Below are positions 6,156-38,524 of a stretch of 64,000 nt of DNA, one piece after another. The number at the start of each line of letters is the position of its first letter. The stretch's first letter is position 1. The position numbers and the translations under genes are program-made. A model generated the notes under the pieces. That model did no database searches. It had not been told where the DNA came from and saw nothing but the letters and a program-made list of their open reading frames with translations. This DNA comes from a virus: IMG/VR virus record IMGVR_UViG_3300027971_000043, positions 1 to 64,000 of that record; one strand, given 5' to 3'.

Positions 6156-6161
6156 AAGCTG

Positions 6162-14834: not shown

Positions 14835-14840
14835 CCATTC

Positions 14841-14869: not shown

Positions 14870-14884
14870 ACTTGAAAGGATATT

Positions 14885-18260: not shown

Positions 18261-18266
18261 TGAATT

Positions 18267-18521: not shown

Positions 18522-18620
18522 AAATAAAAAGAAAAAGCTTAAGAGCTTAATCGATCACTCGCATCGACCACGCCAAGGCTTGCTCGATAAGGTTGCCAAG
18601 CTGGCGTTGTACCACAAGAA

Positions 18621-19955
18621 CTAACGGCTTATTTCTTCCCAATCAACGGAAGTGAATAAATCAGCATTGGGATTGTTTGCTGCGCAAACAACTGAAAACT
18701 CAAAGGCTGTTCCTAAGATACCATTTCGTTCTAACTGATTGGCGAAGAGGGCTTCTTTTAGAATATCGATACCTCCACCAGTTTGCTGGGTGGTGCTGAA
18801 ATAACCAGACGCCATAATTCTTCCCGCTGTCGTGAGTGTTGTTGCTGTAAGGTTGTATTCTACCGCGCTGTCGGCGCCAGCGCTCACCCACGTTCCCCCT
18901 GAAGATATACTTGCGTTCCTAACCTGCCAGTTAAAGGTGTCTCCTGTGGTTTTTCCAAGCAAAGAGAGAGCTGTTATGATAACTACGGCATCCGTTCGGT
19001 CTACAGGAGGAGTGCTAGCGGAAGACTTCAATCTGAGTGTGACGACTGGATAAAAGGTTCCAGCTGTGGTTAGTCTAAAGGGGCTTGTGACCGCAGTCCC
19101 GACAGCGTGTTGGGCTCCTCTCAATTCATATCCGCCTTCGGATAAAACCGTAGAGCAAACTTGTTTGAGGGTGCTGGAGCTAGAAGTAACCCCTGTGTTT
19201 TTAATTTCGTACCGAAGTGGGAGACTTGCCGTTGTTATATAAGTTGACGTAATTAAATTGGCATGATGAAACGAATGACAAAGAATAAACTGACCGTTAA
19301 TTATAAATCCTAGACGAACAGTTCCAAGACCTAACCATTCGATGTCCATCCAGAAAATCTGGGCTTTTGTAATATCAAGAGTTATACCAGAAGGGCCAGT
19401 CCCATCAAGCTTGTCCCCATTCCAATCAGCTTGAGCTACTGGGATTTCTGTAACGATTCCAGTTACCAAAGACCGTTCAACTAGACTCAACGCGTTACCA
19501 TAAAGCTCAACATATAAGCCGTTATCATCGCCATAATAGCCAACCCTCTGGCGAAGATTTGTTTTAGTTGGACTCATAACAAATGTATTCATGACCAATA
19601 AAGATTTTCCAGGTTGGTAAGAAAATACTTTTGTTGTCTCTCGAATTATCTCGTCATTATTTGCTGTACCAATTGTTAAATCCATGAGACCCTGGCTCGC
19701 GTTGAAAGTAGCTGAAGCGGTGCCAGAAGTATAAGTCGACCACAGCCCATTGTCCCGATAGCGATGGCTGGAATCAAAAAGGGTGAAGGGTTCGGAGACC
19801 CTTAAACGACCGAAGGAATCGGTGGGGAACGACCCAATAATACCGCCAGATCCACCACTCGAAAGGTTATCAAGGCTACTGGAGATCTTCTGGAGACTGC
19901 GAACTTCCGTGTCTGACCAGAGAGGTGTGTTATTCTCTGGAAAATATTCAGGCAT
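18621..19955 (-). CDS. Conserved beta-rich phage protein, probably virion-associated
   Basis: DSFGRLRVSEPFTLFDS, YQPGKS, DIEWLGLGTVR motifs of a common aquatic-phage family. Confidence 0.75.
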   Translation of the reverse strand: MPEYFPENNTPLWSDTEVRSLQKISSSLDNLSSGGSGGIIGSFPTDSFGRLRVSEPFTLFDSSHRYRDNGLWSTYTSGTASATFNASQGLMDLTIGTANNDEIIRETTKVFSYQPGKSLLVMNTFVMSPTKTNLRQRVGYYGDDNGLYVELYGNALSLVERSLVTGIVTEIPVAQADWNGDKLDGTGPSGITLDITKAQIFWMDIEWLGLGTVRLGFIINGQFILCHSFHHANLITSTYITTASLPLRYEIKNTGVTSSSSTLKQVCSTVLSEGGYELRGAQHAVGTAVTSPFRLTTAGTFYPVVTLRLKSSASTPPVDRTDAVVIITALSLLGKTTGDTFNWQVRNASISSGGTWVSAGADSAVEYNLTATTLTTAGRIMASGYFSTTQQTGGGIDILKEALFANQLERNGILGTAFEFSVVCAANNPNADLFTSVDWEEISR

Positions 19956-21630: not shown

Positions 21631-21897
21631 TTAACAACTCCAAAGAACTTTTCGGGCCCAATAATTAGCTGACAGTTTCCCATCACCCCCTTTAATCCCA
21701 CCACTCCTAGCACAATAACTCTTTCGCCTTTTGGCACTATGATGCTGAGTAAAATCTTTCATTGAGCTATCTCCAAAATGAATAATTCTTTCTTGCCCGC
21801 CAGAGCAAGCTTTGACAACTTTCTTCTTGCCCGGCCTCCACGACTTGCGCGGTTTGTTGCAGGGCATGTCGGCTTTGCTGGGCTTCCCTAGAGGCAT
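21631..21897 (-). CDS. Small basic protein (DUF5754-like)
   Basis: IIHFGD...RRKSYCAR...SANYWARKVLW. Confidence 0.7.
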   Translation of the reverse strand: MPLGKPSKADMPCNKPRKSWRPGKKKVVKACSGGQERIIHFGDSSMKDFTQHHSAKRRKSYCARSGGIKGGDGKLSANYWARKVLWSC

Positions 21898-22445
21898 TAT
21901 CGCTCCTGTGTTTGACCAATCCTCGAATCAATGACGTCTGAATCTAGGATCGGTACTTTCTTGAGGATCATATCCATGTCCTTTGAAATCCTTTGGAGAT
22001 TGGTGGTGTAGGGCTGAAGGCCACCAGTAAAGTATCCTCCCTGCTTTAAGCCCGTTGCATATCCCGCTACGTTGGTCGCAGACAAAGCCCCGCTATATCG
22101 AGGCATCTTAAGTTTCCTAGTCCAGTCCTCAAAGAACTGGTTGGGGCTTTCATAAGTCTTGAAAGGTTCGATGGCGGGTGCGTTGTTTTCTCCTTCAGTT
22201 GTGGCCATCTTTACCTGAGCTTCTCCAGCCTTGGCTTTGACTCCGCCTAGATTACCATATTTTTTAGCCAGCTCGGACTCACCGTATCCTGACTCCAAAG
22301 CTGTCTGCGCCAAGACCCACGACGGATCGATGCCCAAATCTGCTGCCGCCTTCATCGCCGGAGAAAACATCTTCTTAACGTACGCAATTTTCTTTTCGGC
22401 CTGCGGGCCTAGTTGCTGTCTCCAATCTTGGGTTTCGTCTGCCAT
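21897..22445 (-). CDS. GH73 glucosaminidase/FlgJ-like muramidase, likely virion-associated
   Basis: LAQTALESGYG, NLGGVKA, TTE, GGYFT; Cys-free and follows the ejection proteins. Confidence 0.85.
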   Translation of the reverse strand: MADETQDWRQQLGPQAEKKIAYVKKMFSPAMKAAADLGIDPSWVLAQTALESGYGESELAKKYGNLGGVKAKAGEAQVKMATTEGENNAPAIEPFKTYESPNQFFEDWTRKLKMPRYSGALSATNVAGYATGLKQGGYFTGGLQPYTTNLQRISKDMDMILKKVPILDSDVIDSRIGQTQER

Positions 22446-22458: not shown

Positions 22459-25400
22459 TTACTTTCTTTCTGGAAACAAGATACCCTCTTGATTTTTTTC
22501 AAGTAGAACATTTTGTAGGATAGGATTTTTTATCGTCTTGTTGACTTGCTGCATAAAGGTGATGAATTGGGGTCTACTCATTTTCTCCAGTTGAGGAATA
22601 AATGGAGCTAGGAAGTTCTCTATTACAGGCCCAGCACGTTGCATCCATTCGTACTTTTCGTCATTTGTTAACTCTCGGCTGATTTGGAAAAAGTCATCTG
22701 GTGTTAGAGTAACTCCATTGGCAGCGGCATCTTTAATCAAATCCATCATGGCATAATTTTTTAACGGACCTGGATCCCAATCTAATGCATATCGGTTAGC
22801 TGCAAACAATGAGATTAATTTATCATGTATTGCCTGTTGGCTACGCTCTCCGTTGTTATAAGCCATACCGTCCACTCCGACTGTAGTGAGACGCCGTAGA
22901 AATGGTACAGTATTTGACATTTGTGTCCTTATATTCCCCCCTAAGAAATCAAGATCTGGTCTCCCAATTTTTGACGCAAAAGGTATTGAGGACATAAATA
23001 CAGAAAGAAGATTTTCCTGATAGGGTCTTGCGCTGGGTGAACCCGTTAAGCCATTATAAGCCTGTTCAATATCTCTTGCCGTTGCATAACCGGGTATAAA
23101 GCTGGCAGTTATATTTCCCGCCAACTTTACTGTTTTATCTATTATCATTTTTGGGTCTGTTCTTTGTGGGCCAGGCGAGGTTAGAGCCATGATTGACCTC
23201 AAACCACTTAAGAATCCTACGTCCAACATCGCCAAAGTTGTGACCATCCCAGCCGCTAGCGTACCCTCCAAAGCAGCTTCTACTTTCGATCTCTTGGAAT
23301 ATCTAACACTTTCAACATAAGAGGCAATAAGAGTAAGAACAGCTTGTATGCCTTGAGGGAAGAATTCAAAAGAAACAAATCTAGGTTTACCGCTTTTAAA
23401 TGTGCCCAGCTGAATAGACTTTAACTTTCCTCCCGCCGCAAGAAATGCTTCTCTTTGTGTTGGATCTGCCGGTCCGTTTAAGTGGATGTTATTTTCTGGG
23501 TCATCTTCTCCCGACATCGCAGGTAAAAATCTTAATCCAATAAGAAAAATTCCCATAAGACCAGTAAACATTTTACCCAACAATAAGTCATGTTCAATTG
23601 TTCCGGGAGTAGGGGGAGGCACAAAATATTTACTATCTTTTAATTTTCCGGCTGATCCTCTAATAAAACGAATCTGAGAAATGATGGGTAAAAACTTTAG
23701 CCCCTCATTTGCCAAGGCTGATCCTGTCCTCAAAAACTTAAGTAGAACTTTAAGTGCTTTAGCTTTTTCCCCAAGATCGTTTACAGTTCCAGCTAAAAGA
23801 CCAATATAACCTTCAAAATTATTTGTAAAAGAAGTTTGGGCTGCCAACGTTTGAGCTCTTTTTGTGATTTCTTTTACGGCATCTTCGTCCGGTCTATTCT
23901 GAGCTATAATCTCTTCTACCCGTAAAGTCTGCTCAGTCGGAGTAAGACTAAACTCTTTTGCCTCTGCTGCGGCTTTTGCTTCTGCCCGGGATCTAGCTTC
24001 CGGAGACATGTTCAATAATCTGGCAACCTCGGCTTCAATCTCTTCCTGTGTCGTTAGTCCCTGGTCTATGGCTACATTAGTTGCCTCTAAGACCTCGGCC
24101 ATTTTTTTAGTCGATACTTTTATCAAAGCATCTCCAGCTTGCATAGCTCTTCCAAACCAAATGTAAGGACCTAGTAGACCGTATTTTTTACTAATAGCCT
24201 TGGGGTCGAGAGGTAGTGTGTACTCTTTTCCAAATGCTTTTATTGGGAGTTCTGGCCTAATAGAACTTTGTCCCTTTCTATAGGCTTCGGCTTGGTTTAC
24301 GATCGCTTCAAAAGTATTAATGCCGCCATACTCCTGATTCAACACGTCGGAAATATCGGAATAATTACCGCTTAACATTGTATTTAAAGCTGCTGCGTAT
24401 GCTTTTCCTTTTGGAGAAAAGATTGCTTGATTAAGAGAAGGAAGAGCTGAAAGATAAGCTTTGCCTAATGCTTTTTCTTGTTCTTTGTTGAGCGCAGCTC
24501 CAATGGCATACTTTACTCCTCCAGCCGCGGTTAACAGAAAAGCGTTAAGTTCGGCGTTTAATAACGATCCGAACGCGTTGATACCAACAGTTCCAACTGA
24601 ACTTAGTAGACCTGCGGTTTGATAATTAATTAACAAATCAGACCAAACAACGGGAGCAACAAACTTAATGTATTGATACATTTCATTGATTGCTTTTTGT
24701 CTTATCATTCCTTTTGGCAATACACTCAGGGCTTCAATTTTTTTATTAAGTTCTTTGCGTTGTTCCTGAGTCATCTCGGGAAGTCCGAGTTGCGAATGCA
24801 TCTGAACAAAAACGTCATCATCAGAAAGGACTCCAAGATTTGCAGACTCAATAAGCTTGTCTAAAGCAGATCGTATCTTTCGAGTTTTGCGCTCTTTCTT
24901 CTTTTCAAAATTTTCTTTGATTCGTTTTAAGGCGTCTTTTCTCTCGCTAGCAATAAGTTCAGTCATCCCTTCGCGAAGGAAGTCGAGAACTTCTTTCTTT
25001 TGAGCTTCATCAAGATTAGTATTCTCGGTTAGCAAAGCCCCCATTTTATTTTCAAAGTCCATGATATCGCCACGGCTGGCTCGGATAAGACTACGTAGAT
25101 TTGTCTTAGGTCCCCCAATAGACTCCAAAGCCCTAACGGTTTGCTTGAGGCTAGACACAGCAAAGGGTCTTCCAAACGCTTCTTCAATAAACGGTTCGAG
25201 CCCGATTAACTCTTGCTCATTGTAGTTGTTTCGAAGCGATTCCCGAACGTTGTTGATAAACTCTTTAACTTCTGGATACTGTGCAATCCGATCTTTAAGA
25301 ACTTCGGCTTCGGTAGGTTTAGGTAGAGGTTCAAATACAGGTTGTAGCCCACCCATTTCTTTTGTGCGTTGGGCAATCAATCTTCGAGTCCGCATTGCAA

Positions 25401-28400
25401 ACTCTTCAAGAGCATCCTTAACTTTTGGTTGTTTCTGGAGGCGAGCTGCTTGTTTTTGTAAAGCGTCTGCGGAAGCTTCGGCCAGGGCTAATTCCGGAGG
25501 AAGATTATTTGGAACTATTACAGGTGCTTCTTGAGCGGCTTTTGCTTTTGCTTGAGCAACTCTTTGGATTGCTTCTCCTCGCGTGGACGGAGGAGGAATA
25601 ACTTCAGCAGCCTGACCAACTCTAGTGCCAGCTTCTCTCGCTCTCGCTTCTCTTAATGCTTTAGCTTGGAAGAATTCAAGGGCATAGGTTAGGGCAGAGT
25701 CAAAATAAAGTTCCAACTTTCTTCTTACATTTTCTTGATTCTTTGCATCACGCACAACGGGAGCCAACATCACCAACCGTTTGATCTCATCAGCTGAAGC
25801 GGCTGTCTCCCGCGGATTTTCTGAACGTTCAATGATTCCTAGAATGACTCTACCCAAAGCTCTGGACTGATCTGGATCAAGGCGAATGTCATCTCCACCC
25901 ATACCCGGCTCGGGGGCCGCCGCAATATCAGCTCCAAGCCACTCCGTCAAACCCTTACTAACTTCTTCGCTTTCAAGATAATCCGATATCACCGCTTGAA
26001 TCTGCGATAATGTTCCACCCTTTTTGTTTAGATCAACTAGTTTTCCAAGTTGATCCTGAACTGCTTGCAGATTATTTCCTTTTATGGTTTTCTTAGCAGT
26101 CGTAAATTTTTCAGCAGCTCTTCGATTCGCATCTTTTAATGCCATAGCAATTTCGTCATTTTCCTCTGCGTAACCTTGTAGTTTGCCTTTAAGCGTCTTA
26201 TCTATTTGACGATACACAAAAAGTTTTGCTCTTTCGGGATTATCAAAAATTAACGAATCCAGTCCACTCCACATTTGAACTGCCCTTCCAGCTTCAGTCC
26301 CATACTTTTTAGCTGCAATCAGTGCAACATCTATCAATTGACTTTCAGCAAATTTATCTGTTTTTGCTTTTTCTCTAAGCGTGTTCATTAGTTCAAAAGC
26401 AACTCCTGTTTGCACAGGAAGAGAAGCGTTAATATTTCCAGCTAAAAATTGTTGCAATGATTTATCAAATCCATTTTCTGCTATGTAATTTCTAGCGTCT
26501 TCTATCTGTTGTTCTTGTGATACGGATGTGTAATACCATTCATTTAAAAGCCTATCTTTATCCGCTCCTTCAGGAATTTTATCTAAAACATTTAAGGCAA
26601 TATTTTTTACGGCTTGGCTTTCACGAATCTCGGGGGCTGGTACCGGTATGACTCGAGTAATTTCAGGTGGTGGAACTGGAATTGAAACTGTTTCCCCGTC
26701 TAAAGAAACTGAAGTTACAATCGGTTTTTCAGTCACAATCTCTGGGGCTGGAGTTAGCCGACGAGCATAATTGTCATATCCAGCCCTACCGATAGCCGCA
26801 ATCAGAGCACCGCGATTTTTGTAAGTATAATTCCTGCCGTCAAAAATAATTTCGTTACGATCCTCAAACATCTTGGCAACCGTATTTGCCACAGCTCCGG
26901 CCGAAGTCTTAGCTGTCGTTGGATAAGATGGGTAGAATCCAATCTTTACATTGTATCGGCTGTACTCAGAAGGTTCAACCAGATTGACTGGCTCAGTCGT
27001 GGCTATAAAAGCTACAGCTGGCAATGACTCACCCGACTCTTCCATACCTTCCGCAATCTCAAGGGCTTTGTTAGCGATCCCGGGAAGGCTTGCACGTCCA
27101 CCATCCATCACGGATTTAGTCGCGGCCCGGAATAAATTGCGCTCTTGATTGGTAATCATTCCGCGACGAGCTGCGACATCCAAGCCGTCAAGCCAGTCGT
27201 TCACGTCAACCGTCTTGAATAGATCGTCAGCTGCGGTGACTCCAAATACTCCGTCGGTTCGGCCTTCAAGATGATTCTCAATCATTCGATAGATTCGAAG
27301 ATCGTAGGAGTCGAACTTGTTGGCTGGACGTGGCGATGTCGGGGAACGACCGGGTTCGGGCGCTGCAACCGGCCCTGGCGCTGAAGCGTCCACAAAATAC
27401 TTAGAAGTCTTACGAAGATTAGAAATGGCATCTTCGATTCCTTGACGCAACACCAAGCGATCCGTGGCTTGAGGAGCCAAACCCAACCCACGCTTGACCA
27501 CAGTGGCCATGCTATCAAACCACACGCCGAGTCTGGCAAGAACGGACTTGGGTTCTTGACCGACAAGATCCTTAAGGCGTTGTGTCGCTCTGGCAATATC
27601 TTTTGGATCTACTGAAGTGACTTGTTCGGTAATACCACCTGTAAGATTTAGCTGCGATAATTGTCGGATACCTTCCATAGAAACCTGGTAAGAATCATTG
27701 GCCAAAGCTTTTATTTTTCCTTGAATAACAGGATCGGTAATGTCAGATCCAAGTTGAGAATTATAAAGCCTGGCAATAGCCAATCGAGTAGCTTGGCTCA
27801 TACCGTCTCCAATGGCTGTTAGTTCTTCAACTGGATCAAGTCCAAGTTCACGAAAATATCTGTACGTTTCAACGTGAATTGTCTCCTCCAACATAACTTT
27901 GGTTAAGTACGATTTAAAATCTTTTGGTGATACCCGAGATTTACTAACTGCTAGTTTCTCGGGATTAATAATAATTGTGTCGGATTCATTATCGGCTCCA
28001 GCCTGAGCTGCTACGCTATGCTCCGCCATAGGGGATACCAAAACATTGTAAATACGAGGCTGACCTTTGGCGTCTTTGAAGGTGACCGTATTGTCTTTGT
28101 AGTTAGTTCCAAGAACGGAAGTTAGTTCCGTGTCCACAAACTTTTGTTGCTCGGCGGTCGCTTCGTTTGTTTCTCTAACCGGAGCCACAGCCTCTTCGGC
28201 TCGCAGACCTTCAAAGCCAGCACCAACAGTAGCGTCAAGCAACCGCAACTTGGCCCGCATACGACCGATAGTGTTCTGGTCAATCTCAGCCTGCGATTCG
28301 AGGAATACAATGTTGGGACGGCTGGCGCTGTCTACACGCCAGACACGATAGATAAGTTGAACCGCTTGAATCGCGCTGATCGGAGGAGATAGAATGATCA

Positions 28401-31400
28401 TCTCTCGGGACTCGTCACCAAACTTGTCATCCAGTTCGATTCCGGTTCCGCCCATTTCCTTGGTCGCAATTAGAACATCAGCCTCTCCCTCATTAAACGC
28501 AGCCATTGCTTGTTCCTTGGTCTGCTCTGAACCAGTGTACATCCGGGCGATCTTGAGAGTCGGATCAAGCTTGGCGATTGCGGCTTCGAGTGACGCGGAA
28601 GTAGGATTAACTGTCTCGCCTTTAGAGTTTTCATCCGAAACAAATCCAACATATAGTACGGGTTTCTTGCCACGTTTGATTGCATCTACTGCTCGTTTAG
28701 CGGCTGCGTCAACTTTGTATTCTTCAAGCGCACGTTTCTGAGCTGCTGCCATTTGTCGCAAAGCCGAGATGTCCACGTTCTGTGTTCCACCATACATCGC
28801 CTTGATGTCCTCAAGCTGTTGCTTGATCTGATTATCAAGAGGAACATCTTGGAACTCTATGTCGACCCCGTCCAGTTTGAGCGAGCGGGAACGCATGATT
28901 CCGTTCTTCGCCATTCCGTCGAGATAAGCCTCCAACCGATCCTGCATTTCGGTTTCAGTAACTCCTTCGGCCAATTGCCAATAGAATTTCTTTCCGCCCT
29001 TAAGAGCATATTTTTGGAATCCAAGACGACTAATTAAAGCATCGGGCGATTCATTATCAAATATTCCAAGTCGGCCAAGCGACAGCAATTGATCCGGAGT
29101 TTCAAACGGAGTACCTGAGGCCATCAATGTGCGCCCTGCTTTGTTGGCAATGTCATCCATTAACACTGCCCAAGATCGTGTCTTCCCACTTTGAATAGCT
29201 TTGGATAGGTTACGGCCAGAGTGTTGCTCATCCAAAAGAACAACAGTCTTGTCATCAATTAAAGGCAAAAGCTGTTCGAGATATCCAGAATTGTACGTGG
29301 TAACAAGCATCCGACCAGGAACAAACTCAATTGGCAATCCCCTTCCGCTCTCGCCCTTGCCCCCACGAACCGCCAACGGAACGCCTAGAATTGTCGCATC
29401 CTTCTGAATCGATCCACCAATTTCTCCATCGTCCCAGTTCGGTGTAACCGCATCAGGAGCCGTTATATAAACAACCTTATATCCCTTGTTGAGATAGTAG
29501 GCTCCAGTCCCAAGCAACACTCGCGTCTTTCCAGTTCCCGGTCCGTTCGCCAAATAAAACGCCTTGTGCTTGGAGTTCTCGATTGTGGTAACAGCCGCGG
29601 CTACGTCCTGTGCTTGTTCTTTAGACAGATTGGAAAGAACCTGTTGTCCCGCTGGAGCAAGAATCTTTTCGTTGAAAGATTTACCTAACTGGTTGCGGGG
29701 TTCGACGAAGGACTTGGGGATCGGGGTGCCACGAGGGCGCTCAACTCCAGGTCTCCCGGTTGCGGCTGGCGGACGCTCAACAGTTCGTTCCACTGCTTTC
29801 CGCTCCGCTGGAACGGTTTCTTCAAGAACTCGCTTTGTGGTGGTAGCGCGCTCCGCTTCGAGCTCGGCGAGCCTTGCGCGAGCTTCCTCACGTCGATCAG
29901 CGGGCGTCTTGGCTTCAGGTCTTGGGGTTGGTAGTTGTTCTGGTTGTTCATATGTTCCTTCCTCGTTTATGGTTAATCCGCTGTCGCGCAGGATTTGGTC
30001 ACTGACGCGAAGCAGGTTTGACCGGAAAGCAGCCGCAATTTTGTTCTTGGCTTCTCCCTCCGGCATGGCTTCCGAAGCCAGATAAGGCTCGGCAAGTTTG
30101 TTTAATGTGGCGACATAGGCATCGGCTTGTTTCTGTGAAATTGTTCCGTCCTCGGTAGATTGCCGAAGATTGGTATCAATGGCTTCAGTGAGTTCTGTGA
30201 TGGAATCTGGGGTTAGTTTAGAAGCAGCTACGCTTTCAATAAAGTTATCAAACGACCTTAACAGATCGCCTGATCGAGACGATTGAACTTCGCCAAGCAA
30301 AGTCTTGGCGGCAACTAACTCGGCATCATCAAAGAAATTATCGGCTTGCAACTGGCGGAACCGGTCAACATAAGGCTTGATCTGGTTGGCCGTAAGGTTA
30401 CCTTCGCGTACAACTCCGGCCGGTTCCTCAACAGCGCGAACCGGTAGTGTCCCAGCTCGTTGACTGTTTCGATAATTGTTTTCCAAGCCCTGAACAAACT
30501 TAGTTCTGACCGCGGGTTGAAGAGCGTTGATGTTATCAATTGTTGTTCCGATCTTGGCCGCTTCCGAAGCCACGTTTTTTACATCGCCAACCACGGCATC
30601 AAATGCCAGCTTCTCGGCATCCGTGGCCAAAGAGTTTCGGAAAGGTTGCTTAAAGTTTTCGGCAAGGATGGCAAGTGCTTCTTGTCGTTGAGCCGCGGAA
30701 GGAACTTCGACTTGACCCTCCATTTGAAAATCTGTTTCAGTCGCGTCGATCTGGTCGAGTGTCTCGTTGATTGCGCCGGCGACCGCTGGGTTAAGACCCT
30801 GTTCTTCCGCCAGTGTCTCGGCATCCACAGCCTGAGTCCGAAGCCCAGGAGTTTCCATGCTAACCGCCGCGCCAATTCCAACGCCAGCTCGCATGCGGGG
30901 AACAGCCTGACGAATGAAATCCCGAAGACGGCTATTGAAAATAGTGCTTAAGGAAAGATTGCCTTTACCTTGACGCAGTTCATACAGGAACGAATTGATT
31001 GTTCCGTTTGAAACTTCGTCTGCAATGTTATACTTCTGGTAACCAGCCAACGACTTGCTCTGAAGGTAAGTGTTCTTACGTTTGATATAAGCCATCAAAG
31101 TCTCGGCAGGATTCATTATGTTTCGGCCGTTTTCATCAATCGCGCCAAGACTCTGGAGCAATTCAACCGTTGATGGGTTCTTTAGATTAAACACATCGCC
31201 TAGAGCATTTACATCATTCTCTCTGGGGTCGGGGGCTAGCTTCTGGAACTTCTGATAAGATGCTTGTTCGGGATTATTGATAGCCAAGACAACGTCAGGT
31301 CGGGCTTCTAGTTCGGGTGAAATCGCTCCGCTTTTGATTCCCGCATTAGTCTCTCGTTCAAACTGTCCGATCAAGCTGGCTACGCTTTGTTCTCCGCGAG

Positions 31401-33711
31401 CTCCGCGTTCCAACTCTCCCTGACCTTGCATGGCCTGCAACTTGGCAAGCTGTTCTTCAAGGGCCGGAGTTTCTTCCAAAGGAGACTGCCTGATTTTGGT
31501 CTGCAAAGCTGTGATCTGATCGGAAATCTTTTTAGCCCTGAACTCAGCGGGTCTTTCCTCGGCAACCAACTCTTGTTGCTGGGCAAGACGAGTTTCCAAC
31601 GCAGTCTGAATTTGGCTTGGTCCCAGATGCCTCGAAGCGATGGCCTCAATCTCTGGCATCGATCCAGCCGTGTCTAATAAATCGCTGATCTCATCGACCT
31701 GATCTTGTGTGATCCCTGGTTTGTTCTCGATCTCCTGCAAGATTGCATCCTTCTCATCCTGCATAATCTCCGCAGGATCTTCCTTACCGATCCAATTACC
31801 CTCGGCATCCTTGACTCCTAGAACCTGATATCGTGATCCGTCCTCACTAAGCTTTCCGTAAACGCGACCCTGACTTTCAAGCCAGTCAATCTTAGCTTGA
31901 TTGGCGGGGGTGGAAGAAAGGTCAATCGAGGTAACTCCCTTTTGAAATACGTTGACTAACTCATTGAATGCCCCAATAACTTCCTCATCAGTTTCTGGAA
32001 CTCCAGCTTCTATGGTCGGAGGAACTCCCATTTGTTTTGGCTGTACTTGAGCCTGAGCTTCTGCCACTTTGCTTGAAAGCAAAGATTCAATCGCGCCTTG
32101 CTTAGCATTGTTAATCGCTTCATCGGCTACCGCCGTAGTTTCGGGAGCAGTTGTTGGGTCAAGAGAAGCCCGAACATTAACAGCGTCAAAAAGAGCTTGG
32201 GCTTGAGGACTGTTCAGAGATTCTCGAAGCTCAACAATTTGTTGCATTTTCTGATCTTCTGGAATCTTGGGGTCGTTCTTAATTCCAGTGACAGTTTGAC
32301 GGAGAGTATCCGCAAACTTGTCATTCGCCATCTGATTAAGTCTTGCTCTACGACCAACAAACCCTTCGGCCAATACCATGCCAAGACCGATACCGCCGGA
32401 AGCGGCTAAACTTTGCGGAATCTGAGCAATAGGATCTTGTCCACGGGCAATCGCGTCAATCACATCGGATGAAGTTTCTCCGAGAGTTGTTCCAATGACC
32501 TTAGCCGTTCCCTGAACAACCGGGGCAAACGCAGGAAGTTTGGTCTCAAGAGCTTTAGCAACCATGTGATTGGTCAAGGCGCGATCGGCCACGTCTTCCA
32601 ATCTATTGCCGGCTTCCTCGGAAAGGGCTAATACGCCGGCCTCACTCACAATCGAAGCTAACCGTTGTCCCACGTTCAAATTACGCGGGTCTTGGTCGAG
32701 GGATTGGGAGGCTCCGACAACTGCATAAGTTGCGCCCTTGGACAGAGTCGTGGGAACTTTAATTGTCTGCCCCGCAATATCTGCGGCTTTGCCCAACAAG
32801 CCTGTTGCCCCAGCGCCAACTGCCATAAATTGACCCAAAGAACCGGTGGCCAATCCAGCCAAAGTAGATGGCATGTAATTCTTTTGAATTACATCGTTGA
32901 TCCCATTGGTCAAAGCGGCTCGACGGGCTACTTGGTCAGGATCATTTTCGTCAACAATAATGTCTCCGATGGAAACAAAAGGAACGAAAGCATCACCGGA
33001 TTGAACTGCAAAATTACGGAGTCCCGCGGTACCAAGTTTCTTTGTCTTGTCACTCTGAAGGTCTTTGTAGTATTCCTGTGCTCGGGCCAGGTTCATTCCA
33101 ACTTTCGGAGTATTCCACGCGCCAAGCCCGAACTCCATCGCGGGAGCTTGATCCTTAGGGGCGATAGATTTCCCAGCAGTTAATTCATCGGAATAGAGAG
33201 CACCAAGCTCAAGGGCTTTCGCAGCTTGGGTAGAGTCCTTGATTGTTCCAATGTAATTGCGGGATGCCAAACTTTCCTGCATGGCTTTGGCATCTTCATT
33301 CGTAATCCCGAGTCCGCTCTGCAAATAAGATCCAATAACTTTACCCACACCTCCGACAGCAATTTTGGTAAGCCCTAACCAGTCATTGTTTTTTTCGGCA
33401 TCAAGGGTGGCTTGGGAAGTAGATTTTATGTAATCATTAACATTCTTCTGAGCATCCTGCCACGACTGTGTATTAAAAGGAAGTTTACCTTCCTTAAAAC
33501 GGGTGGCTGTTCCGAGTAAAAGATCGTTGGCTTTCGGGTTATCCCGAAGCTCCATAAGTTGGCTGGCTTGAGCCAAAGCCGAAGAAGGCTGGCTTAGTAT
33601 AGAATCAAGTTCGTCCTGTTGCTGGGTCGGGGGTTGTCCAAGAATATCTCCGACAATGCTGTCAAGGCTATTAGGCAAACCAGCATCCAAAGGGGAAAGG
33701 GGATCTGCCAT
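22459..33711 (-). CDS. Giant internal virion (ejection)/polyvalent protein with SF2 helicase, zincin-like and possible sigma-like domains
   Basis: 3750 aa, no Cys seen; GPGTGKT, DEQH, SGTP, GGTGIELDD, RVWR; IIINP...EETIH; third of three ejection-type genes. Confidence 0.85.
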   Translation of the reverse strand: MADPLSPLDAGLPNSLDSIVGDILGQPPTQQQDELDSILSQPSSALAQASQLMELRDNPKANDLLLGTATRFKEGKLPFNTQSWQDAQKNVNDYIKSTSQATLDAEKNNDWLGLTKIAVGGVGKVIGSYLQSGLGITNEDAKAMQESLASRNYIGTIKDSTQAAKALELGALYSDELTAGKSIAPKDQAPAMEFGLGAWNTPKVGMNLARAQEYYKDLQSDKTKKLGTAGLRNFAVQSGDAFVPFVSIGDIIVDENDPDQVARRAALTNGINDVIQKNYMPSTLAGLATGSLGQFMAVGAGATGLLGKAADIAGQTIKVPTTLSKGATYAVVGASQSLDQDPRNLNVGQRLASIVSEAGVLALSEEAGNRLEDVADRALTNHMVAKALETKLPAFAPVVQGTAKVIGTTLGETSSDVIDAIARGQDPIAQIPQSLAASGGIGLGMVLAEGFVGRRARLNQMANDKFADTLRQTVTGIKNDPKIPEDQKMQQIVELRESLNSPQAQALFDAVNVRASLDPTTAPETTAVADEAINNAKQGAIESLLSSKVAEAQAQVQPKQMGVPPTIEAGVPETDEEVIGAFNELVNVFQKGVTSIDLSSTPANQAKIDWLESQGRVYGKLSEDGSRYQVLGVKDAEGNWIGKEDPAEIMQDEKDAILQEIENKPGITQDQVDEISDLLDTAGSMPEIEAIASRHLGPSQIQTALETRLAQQQELVAEERPAEFRAKKISDQITALQTKIRQSPLEETPALEEQLAKLQAMQGQGELERGARGEQSVASLIGQFERETNAGIKSGAISPELEARPDVVLAINNPEQASYQKFQKLAPDPRENDVNALGDVFNLKNPSTVELLQSLGAIDENGRNIMNPAETLMAYIKRKNTYLQSKSLAGYQKYNIADEVSNGTINSFLYELRQGKGNLSLSTIFNSRLRDFIRQAVPRMRAGVGIGAAVSMETPGLRTQAVDAETLAEEQGLNPAVAGAINETLDQIDATETDFQMEGQVEVPSAAQRQEALAILAENFKQPFRNSLATDAEKLAFDAVVGDVKNVASEAAKIGTTIDNINALQPAVRTKFVQGLENNYRNSQRAGTLPVRAVEEPAGVVREGNLTANQIKPYVDRFRQLQADNFFDDAELVAAKTLLGEVQSSRSGDLLRSFDNFIESVAASKLTPDSITELTEAIDTNLRQSTEDGTISQKQADAYVATLNKLAEPYLASEAMPEGEAKNKIAAAFRSNLLRVSDQILRDSGLTINEEGTYEQPEQLPTPRPEAKTPADRREEARARLAELEAERATTTKRVLEETVPAERKAVERTVERPPAATGRPGVERPRGTPIPKSFVEPRNQLGKSFNEKILAPAGQQVLSNLSKEQAQDVAAAVTTIENSKHKAFYLANGPGTGKTRVLLGTGAYYLNKGYKVVYITAPDAVTPNWDDGEIGGSIQKDATILGVPLAVRGGKGESGRGLPIEFVPGRMLVTTYNSGYLEQLLPLIDDKTVVLLDEQHSGRNLSKAIQSGKTRSWAVLMDDIANKAGRTLMASGTPFETPDQLLSLGRLGIFDNESPDALISRLGFQKYALKGGKKFYWQLAEGVTETEMQDRLEAYLDGMAKNGIMRSRSLKLDGVDIEFQDVPLDNQIKQQLEDIKAMYGGTQNVDISALRQMAAAQKRALEEYKVDAAAKRAVDAIKRGKKPVLYVGFVSDENSKGETVNPTSASLEAAIAKLDPTLKIARMYTGSEQTKEQAMAAFNEGEADVLIATKEMGGTGIELDDKFGDESREMIILSPPISAIQAVQLIYRVWRVDSASRPNIVFLESQAEIDQNTIGRMRAKLRLLDATVGAGFEGLRAEEAVAPVRETNEATAEQQKFVDTELTSVLGTNYKDNTVTFKDAKGQPRIYNVLVSPMAEHSVAAQAGADNESDTIIINPEKLAVSKSRVSPKDFKSYLTKVMLEETIHVETYRYFRELGLDPVEELTAIGDGMSQATRLAIARLYNSQLGSDITDPVIQGKIKALANDSYQVSMEGIRQLSQLNLTGGITEQVTSVDPKDIARATQRLKDLVGQEPKSVLARLGVWFDSMATVVKRGLGLAPQATDRLVLRQGIEDAISNLRKTSKYFVDASAPGPVAAPEPGRSPTSPRPANKFDSYDLRIYRMIENHLEGRTDGVFGVTAADDLFKTVDVNDWLDGLDVAARRGMITNQERNLFRAATKSVMDGGRASLPGIANKALEIAEGMEESGESLPAVAFIATTEPVNLVEPSEYSRYNVKIGFYPSYPTTAKTSAGAVANTVAKMFEDRNEIIFDGRNYTYKNRGALIAAIGRAGYDNYARRLTPAPEIVTEKPIVTSVSLDGETVSIPVPPPEITRVIPVPAPEIRESQAVKNIALNVLDKIPEGADKDRLLNEWYYTSVSQEQQIEDARNYIAENGFDKSLQQFLAGNINASLPVQTGVAFELMNTLREKAKTDKFAESQLIDVALIAAKKYGTEAGRAVQMWSGLDSLIFDNPERAKLFVYRQIDKTLKGKLQGYAEENDEIAMALKDANRRAAEKFTTAKKTIKGNNLQAVQDQLGKLVDLNKKGGTLSQIQAVISDYLESEEVSKGLTEWLGADIAAAPEPGMGGDDIRLDPDQSRALGRVILGIIERSENPRETAASADEIKRLVMLAPVVRDAKNQENVRRKLELYFDSALTYALEFFQAKALREARAREAGTRVGQAAEVIPPPSTRGEAIQRVAQAKAKAAQEAPVIVPNNLPPELALAEASADALQKQAARLQKQPKVKDALEEFAMRTRRLIAQRTKEMGGLQPVFEPLPKPTEAEVLKDRIAQYPEVKEFINNVRESLRNNYNEQELIGLEPFIEEAFGRPFAVSSLKQTVRALESIGGPKTNLRSLIRASRGDIMDFENKMGALLTENTNLDEAQKKEVLDFLREGMTELIASERKDALKRIKENFEKKKERKTRKIRSALDKLIESANLGVLSDDDVFVQMHSQLGLPEMTQEQRKELNKKIEALSVLPKGMIRQKAINEMYQYIKFVAPVVWSDLLINYQTAGLLSSVGTVGINAFGSLLNAELNAFLLTAAGGVKYAIGAALNKEQEKALGKAYLSALPSLNQAIFSPKGKAYAAALNTMLSGNYSDISDVLNQEYGGINTFEAIVNQAEAYRKGQSSIRPELPIKAFGKEYTLPLDPKAISKKYGLLGPYIWFGRAMQAGDALIKVSTKKMAEVLEATNVAIDQGLTTQEEIEAEVARLLNMSPEARSRAEAKAAAEAKEFSLTPTEQTLRVEEIIAQNRPDEDAVKEITKRAQTLAAQTSFTNNFEGYIGLLAGTVNDLGEKAKALKVLLKFLRTGSALANEGLKFLPIISQIRFIRGSAGKLKDSKYFVPPPTPGTIEHDLLLGKMFTGLMGIFLIGLRFLPAMSGEDDPENNIHLNGPADPTQREAFLAAGGKLKSIQLGTFKSGKPRFVSFEFFPQGIQAVLTLIASYVESVRYSKRSKVEAALEGTLAAGMVTTLAMLDVGFLSGLRSIMALTSPGPQRTDPKMIIDKTVKLAGNITASFIPGYATARDIEQAYNGLTGSPSARPYQENLLSVFMSSIPFASKIGRPDLDFLGGNIRTQMSNTVPFLRRLTTVGVDGMAYNNGERSQQAIHDKLISLFAANRYALDWDPGPLKNYAMMDLIKDAAANGVTLTPDDFFQISRELTNDEKYEWMQRAGPVIENFLAPFIPQLEKMSRPQFITFMQQVNKTIKNPILQNVLLEKNQEGILFPERK

Positions 33712-33745
33712 AAACCAAACTATTCAAGCAGATTCCTGCCCGACG

Positions 33746-35392
33746 TCAACGATTTTGTCCCTGGTTAACTACGTTTGACTCAGGTGTTTGGCCGAGTCCA
33801 GGGAGTTCTCCCAACTGCTGTTTAAGCTTGGCAATAACTTCCCTTACTGGTCTACCTCGATATAGGGCGTCCGGATTGGCGTTGTACATGTTAACAACTT
33901 CTGCAACCTTGGACATGGTTTCCGGGGATAATTGAACTTTGGTTGCGCCTTGAGCAGAAGGAGCGGTGGGAATAGTGGCAGTGCCAGCCTCGGCAACCAT
34001 TGGAGAATCAATTTTGAGTAGTCTGATTGGGATTTGACCGCTTTGTGCAGTCTCCTGATTGGGTTGGGCCGCGGCGGGAGTCTTGCCGGGTTGAGGGGTT
34101 GTTGGAGTCTGCCCGGGTTGAGCGGACGGGGCGGGTGAAACTGGGGGAAGCCCACGAGTTGACATTGCCTCCATCATTTGAATCATAGGATTTGCGGAGG
34201 GAAGGTCTAAAAGACCTCTCTGATTTACGTCGTCTAACCACTTCTCGTATTCTTTTCGTTTCGCTGGATTTATTTTTCCAGTAAGAGGATTGATTGCAGA
34301 ATCCCAACCAACCGTAGCAGAAAGATCGGGAGGGGCAAAAGGAAATACTCGCTCTGGTTTTCCTGTTTCTTTATTTATTACTACTGGACCCACTTCAGGA
34401 TGTTGAGTTAAAACGTTTGTTATAATCTCATTTGCCCTAGTTTTCCAGCTTAATATTTCTTCATTGGCTTCCGCTTTAGTAGTTTGAAACATGAGTCTAC
34501 TTTTTTCGTTGATATAATTTTCTGACAATTTATCGTCTTTTCCGGGGTATCTAGCTTGCAACTCATCCCATTGTTTTTGAGCAGACTTTGGAAGTTCTCC
34601 TACAATCGCTCGAGTTTCGAATTGTCCCATGGCAGTACCAAGTTCAGCTTTTTGATATTCGTCCTGCTGCTTTGCTTTACCTTGAGCAATTTCAGAATAC
34701 ATTTTAATTAAGTTTTCATCTTTATTCCCTAAGTTATAAAACTCTTCATTTCCTTTAGACAATTCATTCTTTAAACGATCTGGACCAATTTTTGTGACGT
34801 CTAATTCATTAATCCGATTGATGACCGCAACAGCTTGAGGACGAGTTCTTACATTAGTAAAGTCTTGTTCCAACATTCTTTTGTTCGCAACCAAAGCCAA
34901 GGCGTTTTTATAGGCATCGGTTTGTTGTTTTATATTTAGACCCGAAGCATAACCCTTGTTAGTTGCTTCAGCCACCTTAAGACCATCTCCGCTTTCAATA
35001 GCCAGCATCAATTCCGATTCAAGTCGAGCGGCTGAAACCTCTTGCTCTCTAATCGCATTTTTTTGATTCAGTTCCAGAAGAGCTTTTGTCTGTTCAAAGC
35101 CAAACTTTCGTTCATCTAAGTCTCGATCCAAAGCCTTGCTTTGCGCTTCGGATTGCGCTTTTATTAGCTGACCAGCATTTTGAGCATCGGCTGATGCAAT
35201 TCGAGCTGTGTTGATCTGCGCTTCTTGTGCCTGATTTGCAGCTTGTTGATCTAATTGAGCGTAGGACAAAGCCAGTCTATTCTGCTCTTGTTGATCCTGC
35301 TGGAACAATTGTTGTTTTTTCAAGTAGTTCTCGCGCAAATCACCAAGGATTCCCCGCACCTGGCCTACATAATCTGGAGCTACTGGTGTCAT
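33746..35392 (-). CDS. Internal virion/ejection protein
   Basis: Q/A-rich, helical, Cys-free; synteny. Confidence 0.65.
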   Translation of the reverse strand: MTPVAPDYVGQVRGILGDLRENYLKKQQLFQQDQQEQNRLALSYAQLDQQAANQAQEAQINTARIASADAQNAGQLIKAQSEAQSKALDRDLDERKFGFEQTKALLELNQKNAIREQEVSAARLESELMLAIESGDGLKVAEATNKGYASGLNIKQQTDAYKNALALVANKRMLEQDFTNVRTRPQAVAVINRINELDVTKIGPDRLKNELSKGNEEFYNLGNKDENLIKMYSEIAQGKAKQQDEYQKAELGTAMGQFETRAIVGELPKSAQKQWDELQARYPGKDDKLSENYINEKSRLMFQTTKAEANEEILSWKTRANEIITNVLTQHPEVGPVVINKETGKPERVFPFAPPDLSATVGWDSAINPLTGKINPAKRKEYEKWLDDVNQRGLLDLPSANPMIQMMEAMSTRGLPPVSPAPSAQPGQTPTTPQPGKTPAAAQPNQETAQSGQIPIRLLKIDSPMVAEAGTATIPTAPSAQGATKVQLSPETMSKVAEVVNMYNANPDALYRGRPVREVIAKLKQQLGELPGLGQTPESNVVNQGQNR

Positions 35393-35395
35393 AAA

Positions 35396-36847
35396 TTACG
35401 CCAATTGTGGCACATAGGCTGACCCTGTCCAGTTCTGTGCTTGTTGTTGCGCTTGCCGTTGAGCTTGCGCTACGAGTCTTTGTCCTCCTGGCCCTTTAAA
35501 GGCGGAGATTGGAATATCTGCTCCACCAAAATTAAGGCTGGTAACAGAACCCGCGCCAGGAAGATTAGGTCTTGTAGCCGAGTATTCACCCGGTTTGAAC
35601 GACACATATTGCCCCTTCTTAATATCGAACTGACCGGGCAATGCCTGACTCTGCCAAGCGTTAAGGGCATTGGAATTTGAAATTTGGCTATTGTATTGAG
35701 CTTGGTCGGTCAAAGCTCCAAACACCAGACTTGGGGGAACCATTTTACTGGCTTCAAAATTTGCTCGGGCCATGGTAGATTGTTGGGCCATGTTTGCCAT
35801 ATTGTTATATACATCGGAGGATTTTACGTAAACCGCATTAAAGATTGCGTTTGGATCTACGTGATTGTAATTGGCAATTGTACTGAAGATAGTGGCAGGA
35901 TTCGTAATCAATTGGTTTACAAATTCGGCTCCACTAACCGGCATCATTTCGCGACCAACTGTAGCGGCAAGTTTGGCTGTCTGGTCAAGTAATCCAGCTC
36001 CGGCAGTTTGAAGTTGTAGGCTGGTTAAGCCTAGGTCTCTAGCAGCTAAGTTTCGGCCAAGGCCACCTCCGTACAACCCAGTGGTAAAACCTTTAGCGGC
36101 GGAGCTTCTGAAAATTTGATCGACCACGTCCGTCGGTATTTTACCAGCAAGGTAGTTGGATGTGATCTCATTTGTCTTTGCCATGTTCGCTTTGTAACCA
36201 GGCATTGCAGCATCAAACTGATCGATATATTTTTTATTTAAAATCTCGGCCATTTTGTTGGCCTGTGTTCCTATCTTCGTAGGATCATTTAACTGAGCAG
36301 CAGCGGCAGCAGCTTGATTTGTAACATCCGAGATCGACGGATTAATTCCGGCAATCATGCTCTTGATTTGAGCTGGACTTAAATTAAGTTTCTGGGCTGC
36401 GGATTTTGCATCTGCAACAAGTTGGTTTTGGTCAACAAAGAAATTAGGATTTACTCCGCTATTAATCTGGTTAAATGTATTTCTAAAATTACCCATCACA
36501 CCAGAGAGATCAACTCCCTGCATTGTAGGAGCAGCGCCCAAGAAAAATTCAACTGGTGTTGCTTGAGCTTGGCTAGCTCCAGAAAGCCCAGCGCCAAGGC
36601 GTGATCCGGCAGAACCGCCACCCCCGCCAAAAACATTTTTGGCTGGAGTGCGAACACCGCCAGTATCCTTGTACTGGCTCGAATTCGGCATATTAGCCCA
36701 CAAGCTTCCTGGTCCTGGGGCAGAAACCTGTTCAAAAGTTTTCCGACTAGCCGGAGAACTCATATACGCATTCCAGGCGGCATCGCCACTAGAATAAGAA
36801 GGAGCGGCTCCTCCACCACCCAAGAAATCAAAAACCATATTAGCCAT
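35396..36847 (-). CDS. Internal virion/ejection protein
   Basis: G/A/Q-rich, Cys-free; RNLAARDLGLTSL; synteny. Confidence 0.65.
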   Translation of the reverse strand: MANMVFDFLGGGGAAPSYSSGDAAWNAYMSSPASRKTFEQVSAPGPGSLWANMPNSSQYKDTGGVRTPAKNVFGGGGGSAGSRLGAGLSGASQAQATPVEFFLGAAPTMQGVDLSGVMGNFRNTFNQINSGVNPNFFVDQNQLVADAKSAAQKLNLSPAQIKSMIAGINPSISDVTNQAAAAAAQLNDPTKIGTQANKMAEILNKKYIDQFDAAMPGYKANMAKTNEITSNYLAGKIPTDVVDQIFRSSAAKGFTTGLYGGGLGRNLAARDLGLTSLQLQTAGAGLLDQTAKLAATVGREMMPVSGAEFVNQLITNPATIFSTIANYNHVDPNAIFNAVYVKSSDVYNNMANMAQQSTMARANFEASKMVPPSLVFGALTDQAQYNSQISNSNALNAWQSQALPGQFDIKKGQYVSFKPGEYSATRPNLPGAGSVTSLNFGGADIPISAFKGPGGQRLVAQAQRQAQQQAQNWTGSAYVPQLA

Positions 36848-36850
36848 AAA

Positions 36851-38068
36851 TTACGCCATGTTGGGAATTTCACCCATTGCAAACGCTCTCATTTGGATCT
36901 GAGGTCGGCCAATGTTAGCTCCGTCCACCTCTCTTAGTTCTTCTTTCAAAAGATCCACAGCTTTTTCCTCGTAAACTTGGGCTTCAACAAGATTGTTATT
37001 TTCTTCTTTTTCAATGGCAATTGCCATCATCTTGAGGGCGCCGAGGTTGGTGACGATAAGATCGTCATCGTCGCCTGTGACCGGAATAAACTTACGTTTG
37101 GCAAGTACCGTAACGGCAGACCCTTCCTCATTTTCAAAGCCCGGAATTGCATAACGCCTATACTGGGGCAAAGTCTCGTCGGGCGCAAGTATGGCGATGC
37201 AGTATTCGGAACCCGTGGTCGGATCAACTGCATAGACACGGACCCAACCTTTCGTAGGGCTTTTGTTTATTGCATCGATGCTTCTGAAGGCATTAACTGT
37301 GGTGCGGGGGAGTTCTGTTAAAGTTAGTACAGCTGGATTGTTGTAACCAACTTGCCACGGGTATGCGGAATTCAATGATGAGGAAGTCTCTACACTACTG
37401 TCGGGAGCTATAAATTGCCAGACAGACCCGTTATTTACTATAATCCACCCGTTAAGATTTCTGTAAGCGGGTTTTGAGTTTGCTGTGGTATAAAAAGCAT
37501 AAACACCGTTAGCCACAACGGCTGCCCCAGCAAACCCAGAAACCAATACACTAGAATTCCCCGAACCGGCGCTCAAGTTCAAACGCTCGCCGTCGATGTA
37601 GGCTCCGTTTTCCTGCGTCTGGATTCGGTCGTTGTAAGTATCTGATCCGCGAAATAGAATGGTTGAGGTGGCGTCTTCAATAAGATCGGTGTAAACACGA
37701 ATAAAACTTTGAGCCGCCAAAGACCTAAAGCAAGGAACATAGCCACGGTCGACTAACTGCCTCCAATCTCCGGGTTGAGCCATTCCCGGGCCATTGGCCA
37801 TAAATTCATACCACTGGTTATAAACCTGTGCAGGAGCTCCCCCAAAGTTATATCCTAGGATTGATTCAAACTCGCGGGGAAGAGTGATGCACCCGCCGTA
37901 AACACAAACGGAATACCGTCCGTAAGTTCCCGCATAAAGTCCCTTATTGAGCAACCTTTCCTGAGCTTCGTTTACGCGAGCCAAAAGCTGGGGATTATCT
38001 GCGCACATTCCATTTTGGGTAACGCGGGCTAACTGTTGTTTTACCGATCCGTATGTTCTGCGGATCAT
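36851..38068 (-). CDS. Tail adaptor / tail tubular protein A-like
   Basis: RVNEAQERL, ITLPREFESI, helical C-terminus; position in tail module. Confidence 0.6.
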   Translation of the reverse strand: MIRRTYGSVKQQLARVTQNGMCADNPQLLARVNEAQERLLNKGLYAGTYGRYSVCVYGGCITLPREFESILGYNFGGAPAQVYNQWYEFMANGPGMAQPGDWRQLVDRGYVPCFRSLAAQSFIRVYTDLIEDATSTILFRGSDTYNDRIQTQENGAYIDGERLNLSAGSGNSSVLVSGFAGAAVVANGVYAFYTTANSKPAYRNLNGWIIVNNGSVWQFIAPDSSVETSSSLNSAYPWQVGYNNPAVLTLTELPRTTVNAFRSIDAINKSPTKGWVRVYAVDPTTGSEYCIAILAPDETLPQYRRYAIPGFENEEGSAVTVLAKRKFIPVTGDDDDLIVTNLGALKMMAIAIEKEENNNLVEAQVYEEKAVDLLKEELREVDGANIGRPQIQMRAFAMGEIPNMA

Positions 38069-38496: not shown

Positions 38497-38524
38497 AGAT
38501 TAAAGGGTTGCATTTTTTTGTCAA
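38497..38524 (-). promoter_or_regulatory. sigma70-type promoter
   Basis: TTGACA-16-TAATCT. Confidence 0.6.

Follow-up and report, generated by a model that had tools for sequence, protein, structure and literature searches.

An open reading frame (ORF) for a giant protein of 3,750 amino acids (aa) lies in the first 64 kb (positions 1 to 64,000, hereafter the window) of the 81,730-bp IMG/VR virus record IMGVR_UViG_3300027971_000043, and within this protein a conserved module of ~290 residues (aa ~809-1092) was delimited. The module consists of a winged-helix-like piece, then a basic bundle of four helices, an acidic linker and finally a four-helix helix-turn-helix (HTH) domain, the HTH being of a sigma-4/GerE-like type. 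In a preliminary description of the same DNA it had been proposed that a sigma70-like factor is embedded at this site. The module is not a demonstrable member of the sigma70 family, because the two defining profile features that were tested, the region 2 and region 4 families, gave no match. Conversely, sigma factors are the nearest known architecture to which several partly independent methods point, each of them sub-threshold: alignment of 3Di states, geometric comparison of a domain folded on its own, profile-profile comparison and language-model features. The original proposal is partly supported; it finds no curated sigma model, no region-2 signal and no valid VSMETP cue in its favour. 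Since several partly independent methods select sigma, a diverged sigma-like two-domain layout is regarded as quite possible, with the balance falling just short of even, and such a layout with a role in the early engagement of DNA and RNA polymerase (RNAP) is put forward tentatively.

Module architecture and conservation

The structure of aa 800-1180 was modelled with AlphaFold2 on alignment A1, which consists of 20 diverse family members, and the resulting model has a mean predicted local distance difference test score (pLDDT) of 80.2 and a predicted TM-score (pTM) of 0.41. Model residues 10-140, with pLDDT values of 80-95, form helices, a beta-hairpin and a four-helix bundle, and are followed by a poorly ordered stretch (residues ~141-210, block means of pLDDT 40-72), a four-helix unit (residues 207-287, pLDDT 81-88) and a three-helix bundle (residues 309-380). 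Folding aa 839-951 by themselves gave a pLDDT of 90.3 and a pTM of 0.81. The winged-helix-like piece, in which helices precede a beta-hairpin at a pLDDT of ~90 (model 1), carries the most conserved columns of the module. With respect to charge, the bundle is basic in 20/20 members, the linker is acidic, with 1 Lys or Arg against 12 Asp or Glu, and the HTH domain is mildly basic, a pattern that speaks for a sigma-like unit and is kept across members sharing only 20-40% identity.

The segment has homologues in 42 giant proteins, which are 3,406-4,231 aa long and share 41-100% identity with it. An exhaustive phmmer search of 1.84 billion representative proteins returned 12 matches, including nine proteins of 3.7-4.6 kaa (thousands of aa) and one of 2,241 aa, aligned at residues ~800-1270; two matches of 307 aa are probably fragments. 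The weakest match, a protein of 1,308 aa (P0053, E 6.3e-5), is probably not a member of the family, as only a 39-residue stretch was matched, in seven places. No free-standing form of the module was found in this search. The carriers are cysteine-free proteins of 3.4-4.6 kaa encoded among virion genes, and in every relative found the module occupies a fixed position, ~400 residues upstream of a Strawberry-notch-like superfamily 2 (SF2) ATPase. Residues 801-950 form a conservation island with a column identity of 0.60-0.67, compared with 0.41-0.47 at aa 701-800 and 1101-1350. Conservation peaks at aa ~827-945 (PDPREN..ALGxVFNL..TVELLQSLGAIDENGR...NIADEV...FLxELRxGK..ISLSTIFNSRLRDFIRxAxPRMRAGVG) and is lower across the HTH.

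Similarity to sigma factors

Profile-profile comparison was performed with hhalign, using a sigma profile of 37 sequences (30 sigma genes of five bacterial genomes and 7 RpoE orthologues) that spans RpoD, RpoS, RpoH, FliA and the extracytoplasmic function (ECF) sigmas. Alignment A1 matched this profile with a score of 34.3 (Prob 23.7%, P 8.5e-4) over 170 collinear columns, from the region-2.2-like helix to region 4.2 and in the register that had been proposed from the letters alone. The reversed alignment, which served as a control, scored 14.4, and 150 block-reversed shuffles gave a median of 13.9 and a maximum of 24.1, none of the 150 reaching 33. When seven more distant members were compared with the same profile, a P of 1.4e-4 was obtained (Prob 52.7%). 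Across the whole protein, divided into 36 sliding windows, high scores (27.7-33.3) were observed solely in windows containing aa ~1046-1078, where they cover 33 region-4.2 columns (sigma columns 267-299); the four windows with these residues span scores of 23.7-33.3, and the best match elsewhere on the sigma profile also scored 23.7 (P 0.026).

Compared by itself, the sigma-4 candidate gave P values of 0.011 and 0.0017. The HTH could also be aligned to a GerE profile, over 42 columns that include the helix preceding the HTH, but it fits sigma-4 better than GerE, with P values of 0.0017 versus 0.015, and of 1.4e-4 versus 0.0047 for the distant subset. The GerE alignment has a few wrongly framed rows, so that the GerE P values are approximate, although the positive control, sigma-4 against GerE, still works (P 9e-9). 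The region-4-like HTH of the preliminary description is sustained in the form of a weak, reproducible hhalign signal above shuffles, but not as a match to a curated region 4 profile.

Structural and embedding comparisons pointed in a similar direction, with Foldseek, VIA, BFVD and ESM Atlas values that are all sub-threshold by the tools' own guidance. A Foldseek search of the PDB with the whole module returned nothing at E<=1e-3; among the matches listed, 31/45 are sigma chains, judged to be such by entry title and by length. T. thermophilus sigma-A (6kqg_F) ranks first, with an E of 0.073 and a prob of 0.35 over ~300 columns, and sigma32, sigma-H, sigma-L, sigma28, sigma-S and RpoE occur among the others. 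The TM-scores of these whole-module sigma matches are only 0.14-0.16, because the domain arrangement differs from that of the sigma chains. An unbiased VIA search with the whole-module model was swamped by generic matches to the C-terminal three-helix bundle. When VIA was applied to Foldseek's list, ECF sigmas could be aligned over their whole length, in collinear order, with both candidate domains (model residues ~28-285); for SigL the alignment took in 164/174 residues. For the isolated bundle, VIA placed a sigma-2 domain at rank 1. Foldseek with aa 839-951 alone gave the HA2 regions of the DEAH helicases Prp22/Prp43/DHX8 as top matches (E 0.9-1.5), and sigma-2 chains at ranks 17-50 (E 1.8-3.5, TMq 0.34-0.39).

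In the BFVD viral library, 8 of the best 50 matches are sigma-named, with a best E of 0.13. The third BFVD match is a DUF6456 protein from an uncultured phage; its probability in Foldseek, 0.72, is the highest (E 0.14, with 162 columns aligned to the module). Neighbours in the ESM Atlas scored 0.82-0.86; the single named family among 30 matches is the sigma70 family, and the ten best named clusters are likewise all sigma70-family (0.82-0.84).

Evidence against a sigma factor

The sigma reading is neither shown nor refuted, and several results weigh against it. No sigma family was found by Pfam and NCBIfam for aa 801-1125 at E<=10, nor by Pfam at the same threshold in any of the 20 members of A1 (0/20). 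Sigma70_r2 (PF04542) had no match on aa 801-1125, on the 20 members or in a six-frame search of the record, and Sigma70_r4 (PF04545) and Sigma70_r4_2 (PF08281) were found neither by Pfam at E<=10 nor by the six-frame search. PDB sequence and profile searches gave no sigma, only noise at E>=0.46 (EsxB, myosin, picornavirus RdRp). Two absences speak for the sigma-like reading instead: by six-frame searches, in which the control for PF00940 matched nowhere, the record is without a recognisable canonical sigma or T7-type RNAP, and Sigma70_r2 was also not found in 5/5 related phage records, 4 of which are at least 96% complete.

The region-2-like helices, previously proposed to represent sigma region 2, gave no sequence signal: the sigma-2 candidate alone matched sigma region 2 with hhalign P values of 0.46 and 0.2. 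Consequently, nearly all of the profile score derives from ~33 generic-HTH columns. An RpoE-only profile of 81 close orthologues, which is too narrow, gave a P of 0.058 over 23 columns, and an ECF-only profile a P of 0.097. The HA2-like motif matched an HrpA/HrpB profile at P 0.001 (15 columns, 53% identity), so that a P near 1e-3 for a short motif is not specific to sigma; Pfam HA2_N matched 8/20 members (best E 0.028, 15 residues), and GerE had no Pfam match in the 20. The aromatic and polar residues of regions 2.3-2.4 for -10 recognition were not found. In the hhalign register, which is of low confidence, I924, S927 and R928 stand at the positions of the aromatic residues Y430, W433 and W434 of sigma70 (E. 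coli numbering). It is the winged-helix motif and a loop, rather than the region-2.2-like helix, that hold the most conserved columns. In the structural comparisons the sigma matches are level with unrelated helical folds, and ESM Atlas scores below 0.9 rank as a lead only.

The strings from which the sigma factor was originally proposed are present in the claimed order in the translation of 22459-33711 (minus strand), positions 30480-31120 corresponding to aa 865-1077 (Table 1). The comparison of VSMETP with ISMETP of RpoD region 3.2 did not withstand closer inspection. The pattern [VI]S[ML]ETP is kept in 35/43 close homologues and replaced in the other 8 (TQLEE, RRLET, LDFDK and similar), and VSMETP starts 7 residues past the end of PRMRAGVG, whereas ISMETP of RpoD lies 55 residues past IRIPVH (5/5 RpoD). 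ISMETP is not present in the 4 RpoS/RpoH/FliA-size sigmas checked. As VSMETP is variable among homologues and wrongly spaced relative to RpoD, its occurrence looks like chance.

An apparent lack of TTGAC promoters had also been adduced for a dedicated sigma factor. This argument is weak: sigma70-like sites in 1-19000 number 16, compared with 19.4 +/- 4.2 in shuffles. A k-mer count revealed no recurrent early motif, the best 7-mer being common to at most 4/16 upstream regions, and if the host is a marine cyanobacterium, weak -35 elements are to be expected in any case. The promoter argument contributes nothing for or against the sigma reading. At window positions 4950-5094, before the gene at 5094, long G runs (GAGGGGGGTGGGGGTGGGGGTG) and a CC-GATA-GG hairpin come after a stretch rich in A/T. 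A similar G-rich hairpin with a 14-bp stem and a T tail, terminator-like, is located at 5606-5636.

Table 1. Positions in the window of the module, its sequence cues, and other features of the giant protein and the genome.
Feature	Position	Strand	Remarks
Winged-helix-like piece, acidic	31108-31287	minus	aa 809-868; contains VELLQSLGAIDENGR
VELLQSLGAIDENGR	31123-31167	minus	aa 849-863; resembles DEAH/RHA HA2 winged-helix motif
Basic four-helix bundle, sigma-2 candidate (region-2-like helices)	30877-31116	minus	aa 866-945; pI 10.2
IADEVSNGTINSF	30988-31026	minus	aa 896-908
LSTIFNSRLRDFIRQ	30907-30951	minus	aa 921-935
Acidic, poorly ordered linker	30703-30876	minus	aa 946-1003; pI 4.05; contains VSMETP
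VSMETP	30847-30864	minus	aa 950-955
Four-helix HTH domain, sigma-4/GerE-like candidate	30436-30702	minus	aa 1004-1092; HTH core aa 1046-1078 (30478-30576)
LATDAEKLAFDAVVG	30586-30630	minus	aa 1028-1042
EAAKIGTTIDNINALQPAVRTKF	30496-30564	minus	aa 1050-1072
Three-helix bundle, acidic, generic	30172-30399	minus	aa 1105-1180
Giant ORF (P0001)	22459-33711	minus	3,750 aa; from ORF list and translation
SF2 ATPase core, Strawberry-notch-like	28207-29649	minus	aa ~1355-1835; GPGTGKT aa 1390-1396, DEQH aa 1494-1497
EETIH (ExxxH in HExxH position)	27874-27888	minus	aa 1942-1946; regex; candidate degenerate zincin-like motif
Hydrophobic transmembrane-like segments	23182-23589	minus	aa 3375-3399, 3483-3510; conserved C-terminal third
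rIIA and rIIB	11619-14834	plus	780 aa (E 3e-87) and 283 aa (E 6e-69)
Virion structural protein	18621-19955	minus	444 aa; phrog_1645, E 1e-138
Endolysin	21897-22445		adjoins giant ORF
Three large genes of no assigned function	33746-38068		giant-ORF neighbourhood
Tail proteins	38521-42347		giant-ORF neighbourhood
Large terminase	56582-58318		
Helicase	58671-59975	opposite to giant ORF	

The giant protein and its genomic setting

The context given in the preliminary description, a giant protein in a virion/tail/lysis block with an SF2 (Strawberry-notch-like) ATPase core, was confirmed. Pfam matches on aa 1362-1830 comprise AAA_34 (E 3e-4), Helicase_C (1.2e-3), ResIII (4.5e-3) and Helicase_C_4 (0.011), all of them weak and under the curated cut-offs, and Pfam run over the entire protein at E<=1 listed SF2/AAA families alone. 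Precomputed PF13872/PF04851 matches are present on many homologues. In EETIH, Glu takes the place of the first His of HExxH, and the E and H columns are nearly invariant in family alignment A2; Pfam gave no match to a peptidase family on the giant protein. The hydrophobic segments reach Kyte-Doolittle values of 1.4-1.69 in 19-residue windows, and the C-terminal region is among the best conserved of the protein (column identity 0.6-0.75). Over its 3,750 aa the protein has no Cys (0 residues), and this one ORF within the virion module combines multiple unrelated domains: the SF2 ATPase, the HTH module and the hydrophobic C-terminal segments. It is flanked on one side by the endolysin gene and on the other by the three large genes without assigned function and the tail genes.

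Given the weak SF2 matches only, EETIH, the hydrophobic segments, and no DxDxD or RNAP family, the giant protein looks, as judged from its sequence, like an ejection or polyvalent protein and not like an N4-type virion polymerase. Its gene position and the analogy with N4, P1 and T7 suggest that it is probably carried in the virion and enters the cell on infection. An N4-like virion RNAP, which the size of the ORF would suggest, was considered and rejected, as there is no RNAP family by Pfam or PHROGs, no DxDxD, and no PF00940 on the record, the last being a weak absence since the control of the six-frame search matched in no genome.

The ends of the 81.7-kb record are diverged duplicates of each other, window 1692-12605 corresponding to record 69467-81730 in 11 blastn pieces of 80-97% identity, with offsets of 67.8-69.1 kb (the 3'-most piece lies at an offset of 69,125 bp). 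A true genome length of ~69 kb, as in relatives (67.6-71.0 kb), is therefore probable, and past that length the record seems to continue into a second strain variant. An HtrA-like protein of 329 aa is encoded at record 68225-69214 (plus strand; Trypsin_2 E 7e-30 plus PDZ_2), in the replication/early block beside a family-A DNA polymerase fragment and a DUF5906 primase/helicase-like gene.

Among 50,697 phage records, blastn gave no match for window 28000-34000, and tblastn gave none for giant-protein aa 1-1570, for its C-terminal 1,513 aa or for the terminase. The homologues of rIIA and rIIB are clear, though the phage is without cultured relatives. The sole tested part with a cultured relative is the 444-aa virion protein, which is 66-67% identical to its counterparts in the T4-like cyanophages S-WAM2, S-RIM12 and S-RIM8; this resemblance is a hint that the host may be a marine picocyanobacterium, or that genes have been exchanged among cyanophages.

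Possible function and alternative explanations

On the reading tentatively favoured here, the bundle, linker and HTH would constitute a very diverged two-domain unit of the ECF type, which would reach the cytoplasm on ejection of the giant protein with the DNA and would there hold the entering genome end and the host core RNAP together. Early transcription would thereby start ahead of any phage gene expression and might also help to draw the genome in; clearing or translocating DNA would fall to the neighbouring ATPase. That the module captures host core RNAP for early transcription, which is the functional claim in full, is doubtful and borders on unlikely. Unlikely, too, is the complete scenario, in which a ~69-kb phage lineage would deliver a sigma-like module, anchored at the entry site near a Strawberry-notch-like ATPase, that loads host core RNAP on the first DNA without phage gene expression or a virion RNAP, perhaps with transcription-driven internalisation.

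In the main alternative, the module would be a generic nucleic-acid accessory of the injected ATPase that binds or protects incoming DNA or hands it to the SF2 motor, in the manner of P1 DarB and the polyvalent proteins and with no RNAP contact, the sigma likeness then reflecting a common bundle-plus-four-helix-HTH arrangement and the abundance of sigmas in the databases. This is possible, if somewhat doubtful. It would fit the presence of two DNA-binding-type motifs, the HA2-like one (8/20 members by Pfam; P 0.001) and the HTH that also matches GerE, as well as the basic bundle (pI 10.2), the constant distance of ~400 aa by which the module precedes the SF2 core in all relatives, and sigma matches that are all sub-threshold and tied with unrelated helical folds; Sno-like SWI2/SNF2 ATPases with a winged HTH are, in addition, described in the main text of a polyvalent-protein survey (PMC5512222). 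However, it leaves unexplained why sigma is chosen over other HTH families by Foldseek in two libraries, by VIA with the bundle in isolation, by hhalign and by the Atlas. Pfam revealed neither a methyltransferase nor any other domain of the DarB type, and HA2 follows the ATPase core in DEAH/RHA helicases, whereas here the motif precedes the core by 400 residues.

The pTM of 0.41 for the whole module, which implies no fixed inter-domain arrangement, would also suit a structural or assembly element, which as a spacer of helices or a protein-protein interaction module would serve to pack the giant protein into the capsid or to build a trans-envelope ejection conduit, with the sigma and HTH features incidental. 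Long helical, low-complexity stretches flank the module, the adjacent three-helix bundle resembles only generic bundles, and no catalytic or curated DNA-binding family was matched. Such a role is nonetheless improbable in view of the conservation island at aa 801-950 with its nearly invariant polar residues, the HTH signal that beats 150/150 shuffles and the charge pattern conserved across members 20-40% identical. The fold-level hints for a sigma-like unit would apply equally to a sigma decoy or anti-sigma-type inhibitor, which would sequester host core RNAP or block host sigma in the course of host shut-off, and the lack, in the hhalign register, of the aromatic residues that serve in melting of the -10 element would suit binding without promoter opening. 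This variant appears very improbable: no phage RNAP to take over was detected (no PF00940, no DxDxD), a point that is itself weak, as the PF00940 control matched nowhere.

Relation to known systems and significance

The module resembles the group 4 (ECF) sigmas, such as RpoE/AlgU and M. tuberculosis SigH and SigL, in the order of its parts, with a bundle of helices first, an acidic linker next and a four-helix HTH last. It differs from them in that no Sigma70_r2, r4, r4_2 or ECF profile is matched and no region-2 sequence signal is present, in its linker of ~60 residues and the winged-helix piece before the bundle, and in being embedded in a 3,750-aa product of a virion gene, whereas an ECF sigma is a free protein of ~190 aa. 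LuxR/GerE proteins offer a second comparison for the HTH; the alignment includes the helix before it, but is weaker than that with sigma-4 in both comparisons, and the module has neither a Pfam GerE match nor a receiver or ligand domain. As to the HA2 of DEAH/RHA helicases (HrpA, HrpB, Prp43), only the 15-residue motif VELLQSLGAIDENGR matches. It lies 400 aa upstream of the core and not directly after it, and the ATPase is Sno/SNF2-like, not DEAH-like.

The virion RNA polymerase of coliphage N4, gp50, comprises ~3,500 aa and enters the cell along with the DNA, where it starts early transcription. The giant protein resembles it in size, in its presumed ejection and in being encoded with a short-tailed-phage-like structural module, but no T7-like RNAP domain was found here by Pfam or by the six-frame search, the latter being weak, and a DxDxD motif is absent. 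On the sigma reading, if it holds, the host enzyme would be borrowed by this phage, which would not bring one of its own. In common with polyvalent proteins and P1 DarB, the protein is a giant multidomain product whose gene lies among virion genes and which presumably accompanies the DNA into the cell; the helicase-coupled DNA methyltransferase of DarB was not found here by Pfam at E<=1. Polyvalent proteins have been proposed to "jump-start transcription or replication" (Iyer et al. 2017, PMC5512222), and the word "sigma" has 0 occurrences in the main text of that article. Literature searches, mostly at the level of abstracts, yielded no paper on a virion-borne or injected sigma-like module.

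Phages are known to start transcription with the host holoenzyme, with an injected polymerase (N4, phiKZ-like, crAss-like) or with injected modifiers of the host enzyme (T4 Alt). If the sigma reading is true, an injected specificity subunit would constitute a fourth strategy for starting phage transcription, and some members of a widespread class of giant virion proteins that lack annotation would, in part, gain a function. Even on a conservative view, a conserved module of the DNA-binding type, composed of a winged helix, a basic bundle and a sigma-4/GerE-like HTH, is defined with clear domain borders.

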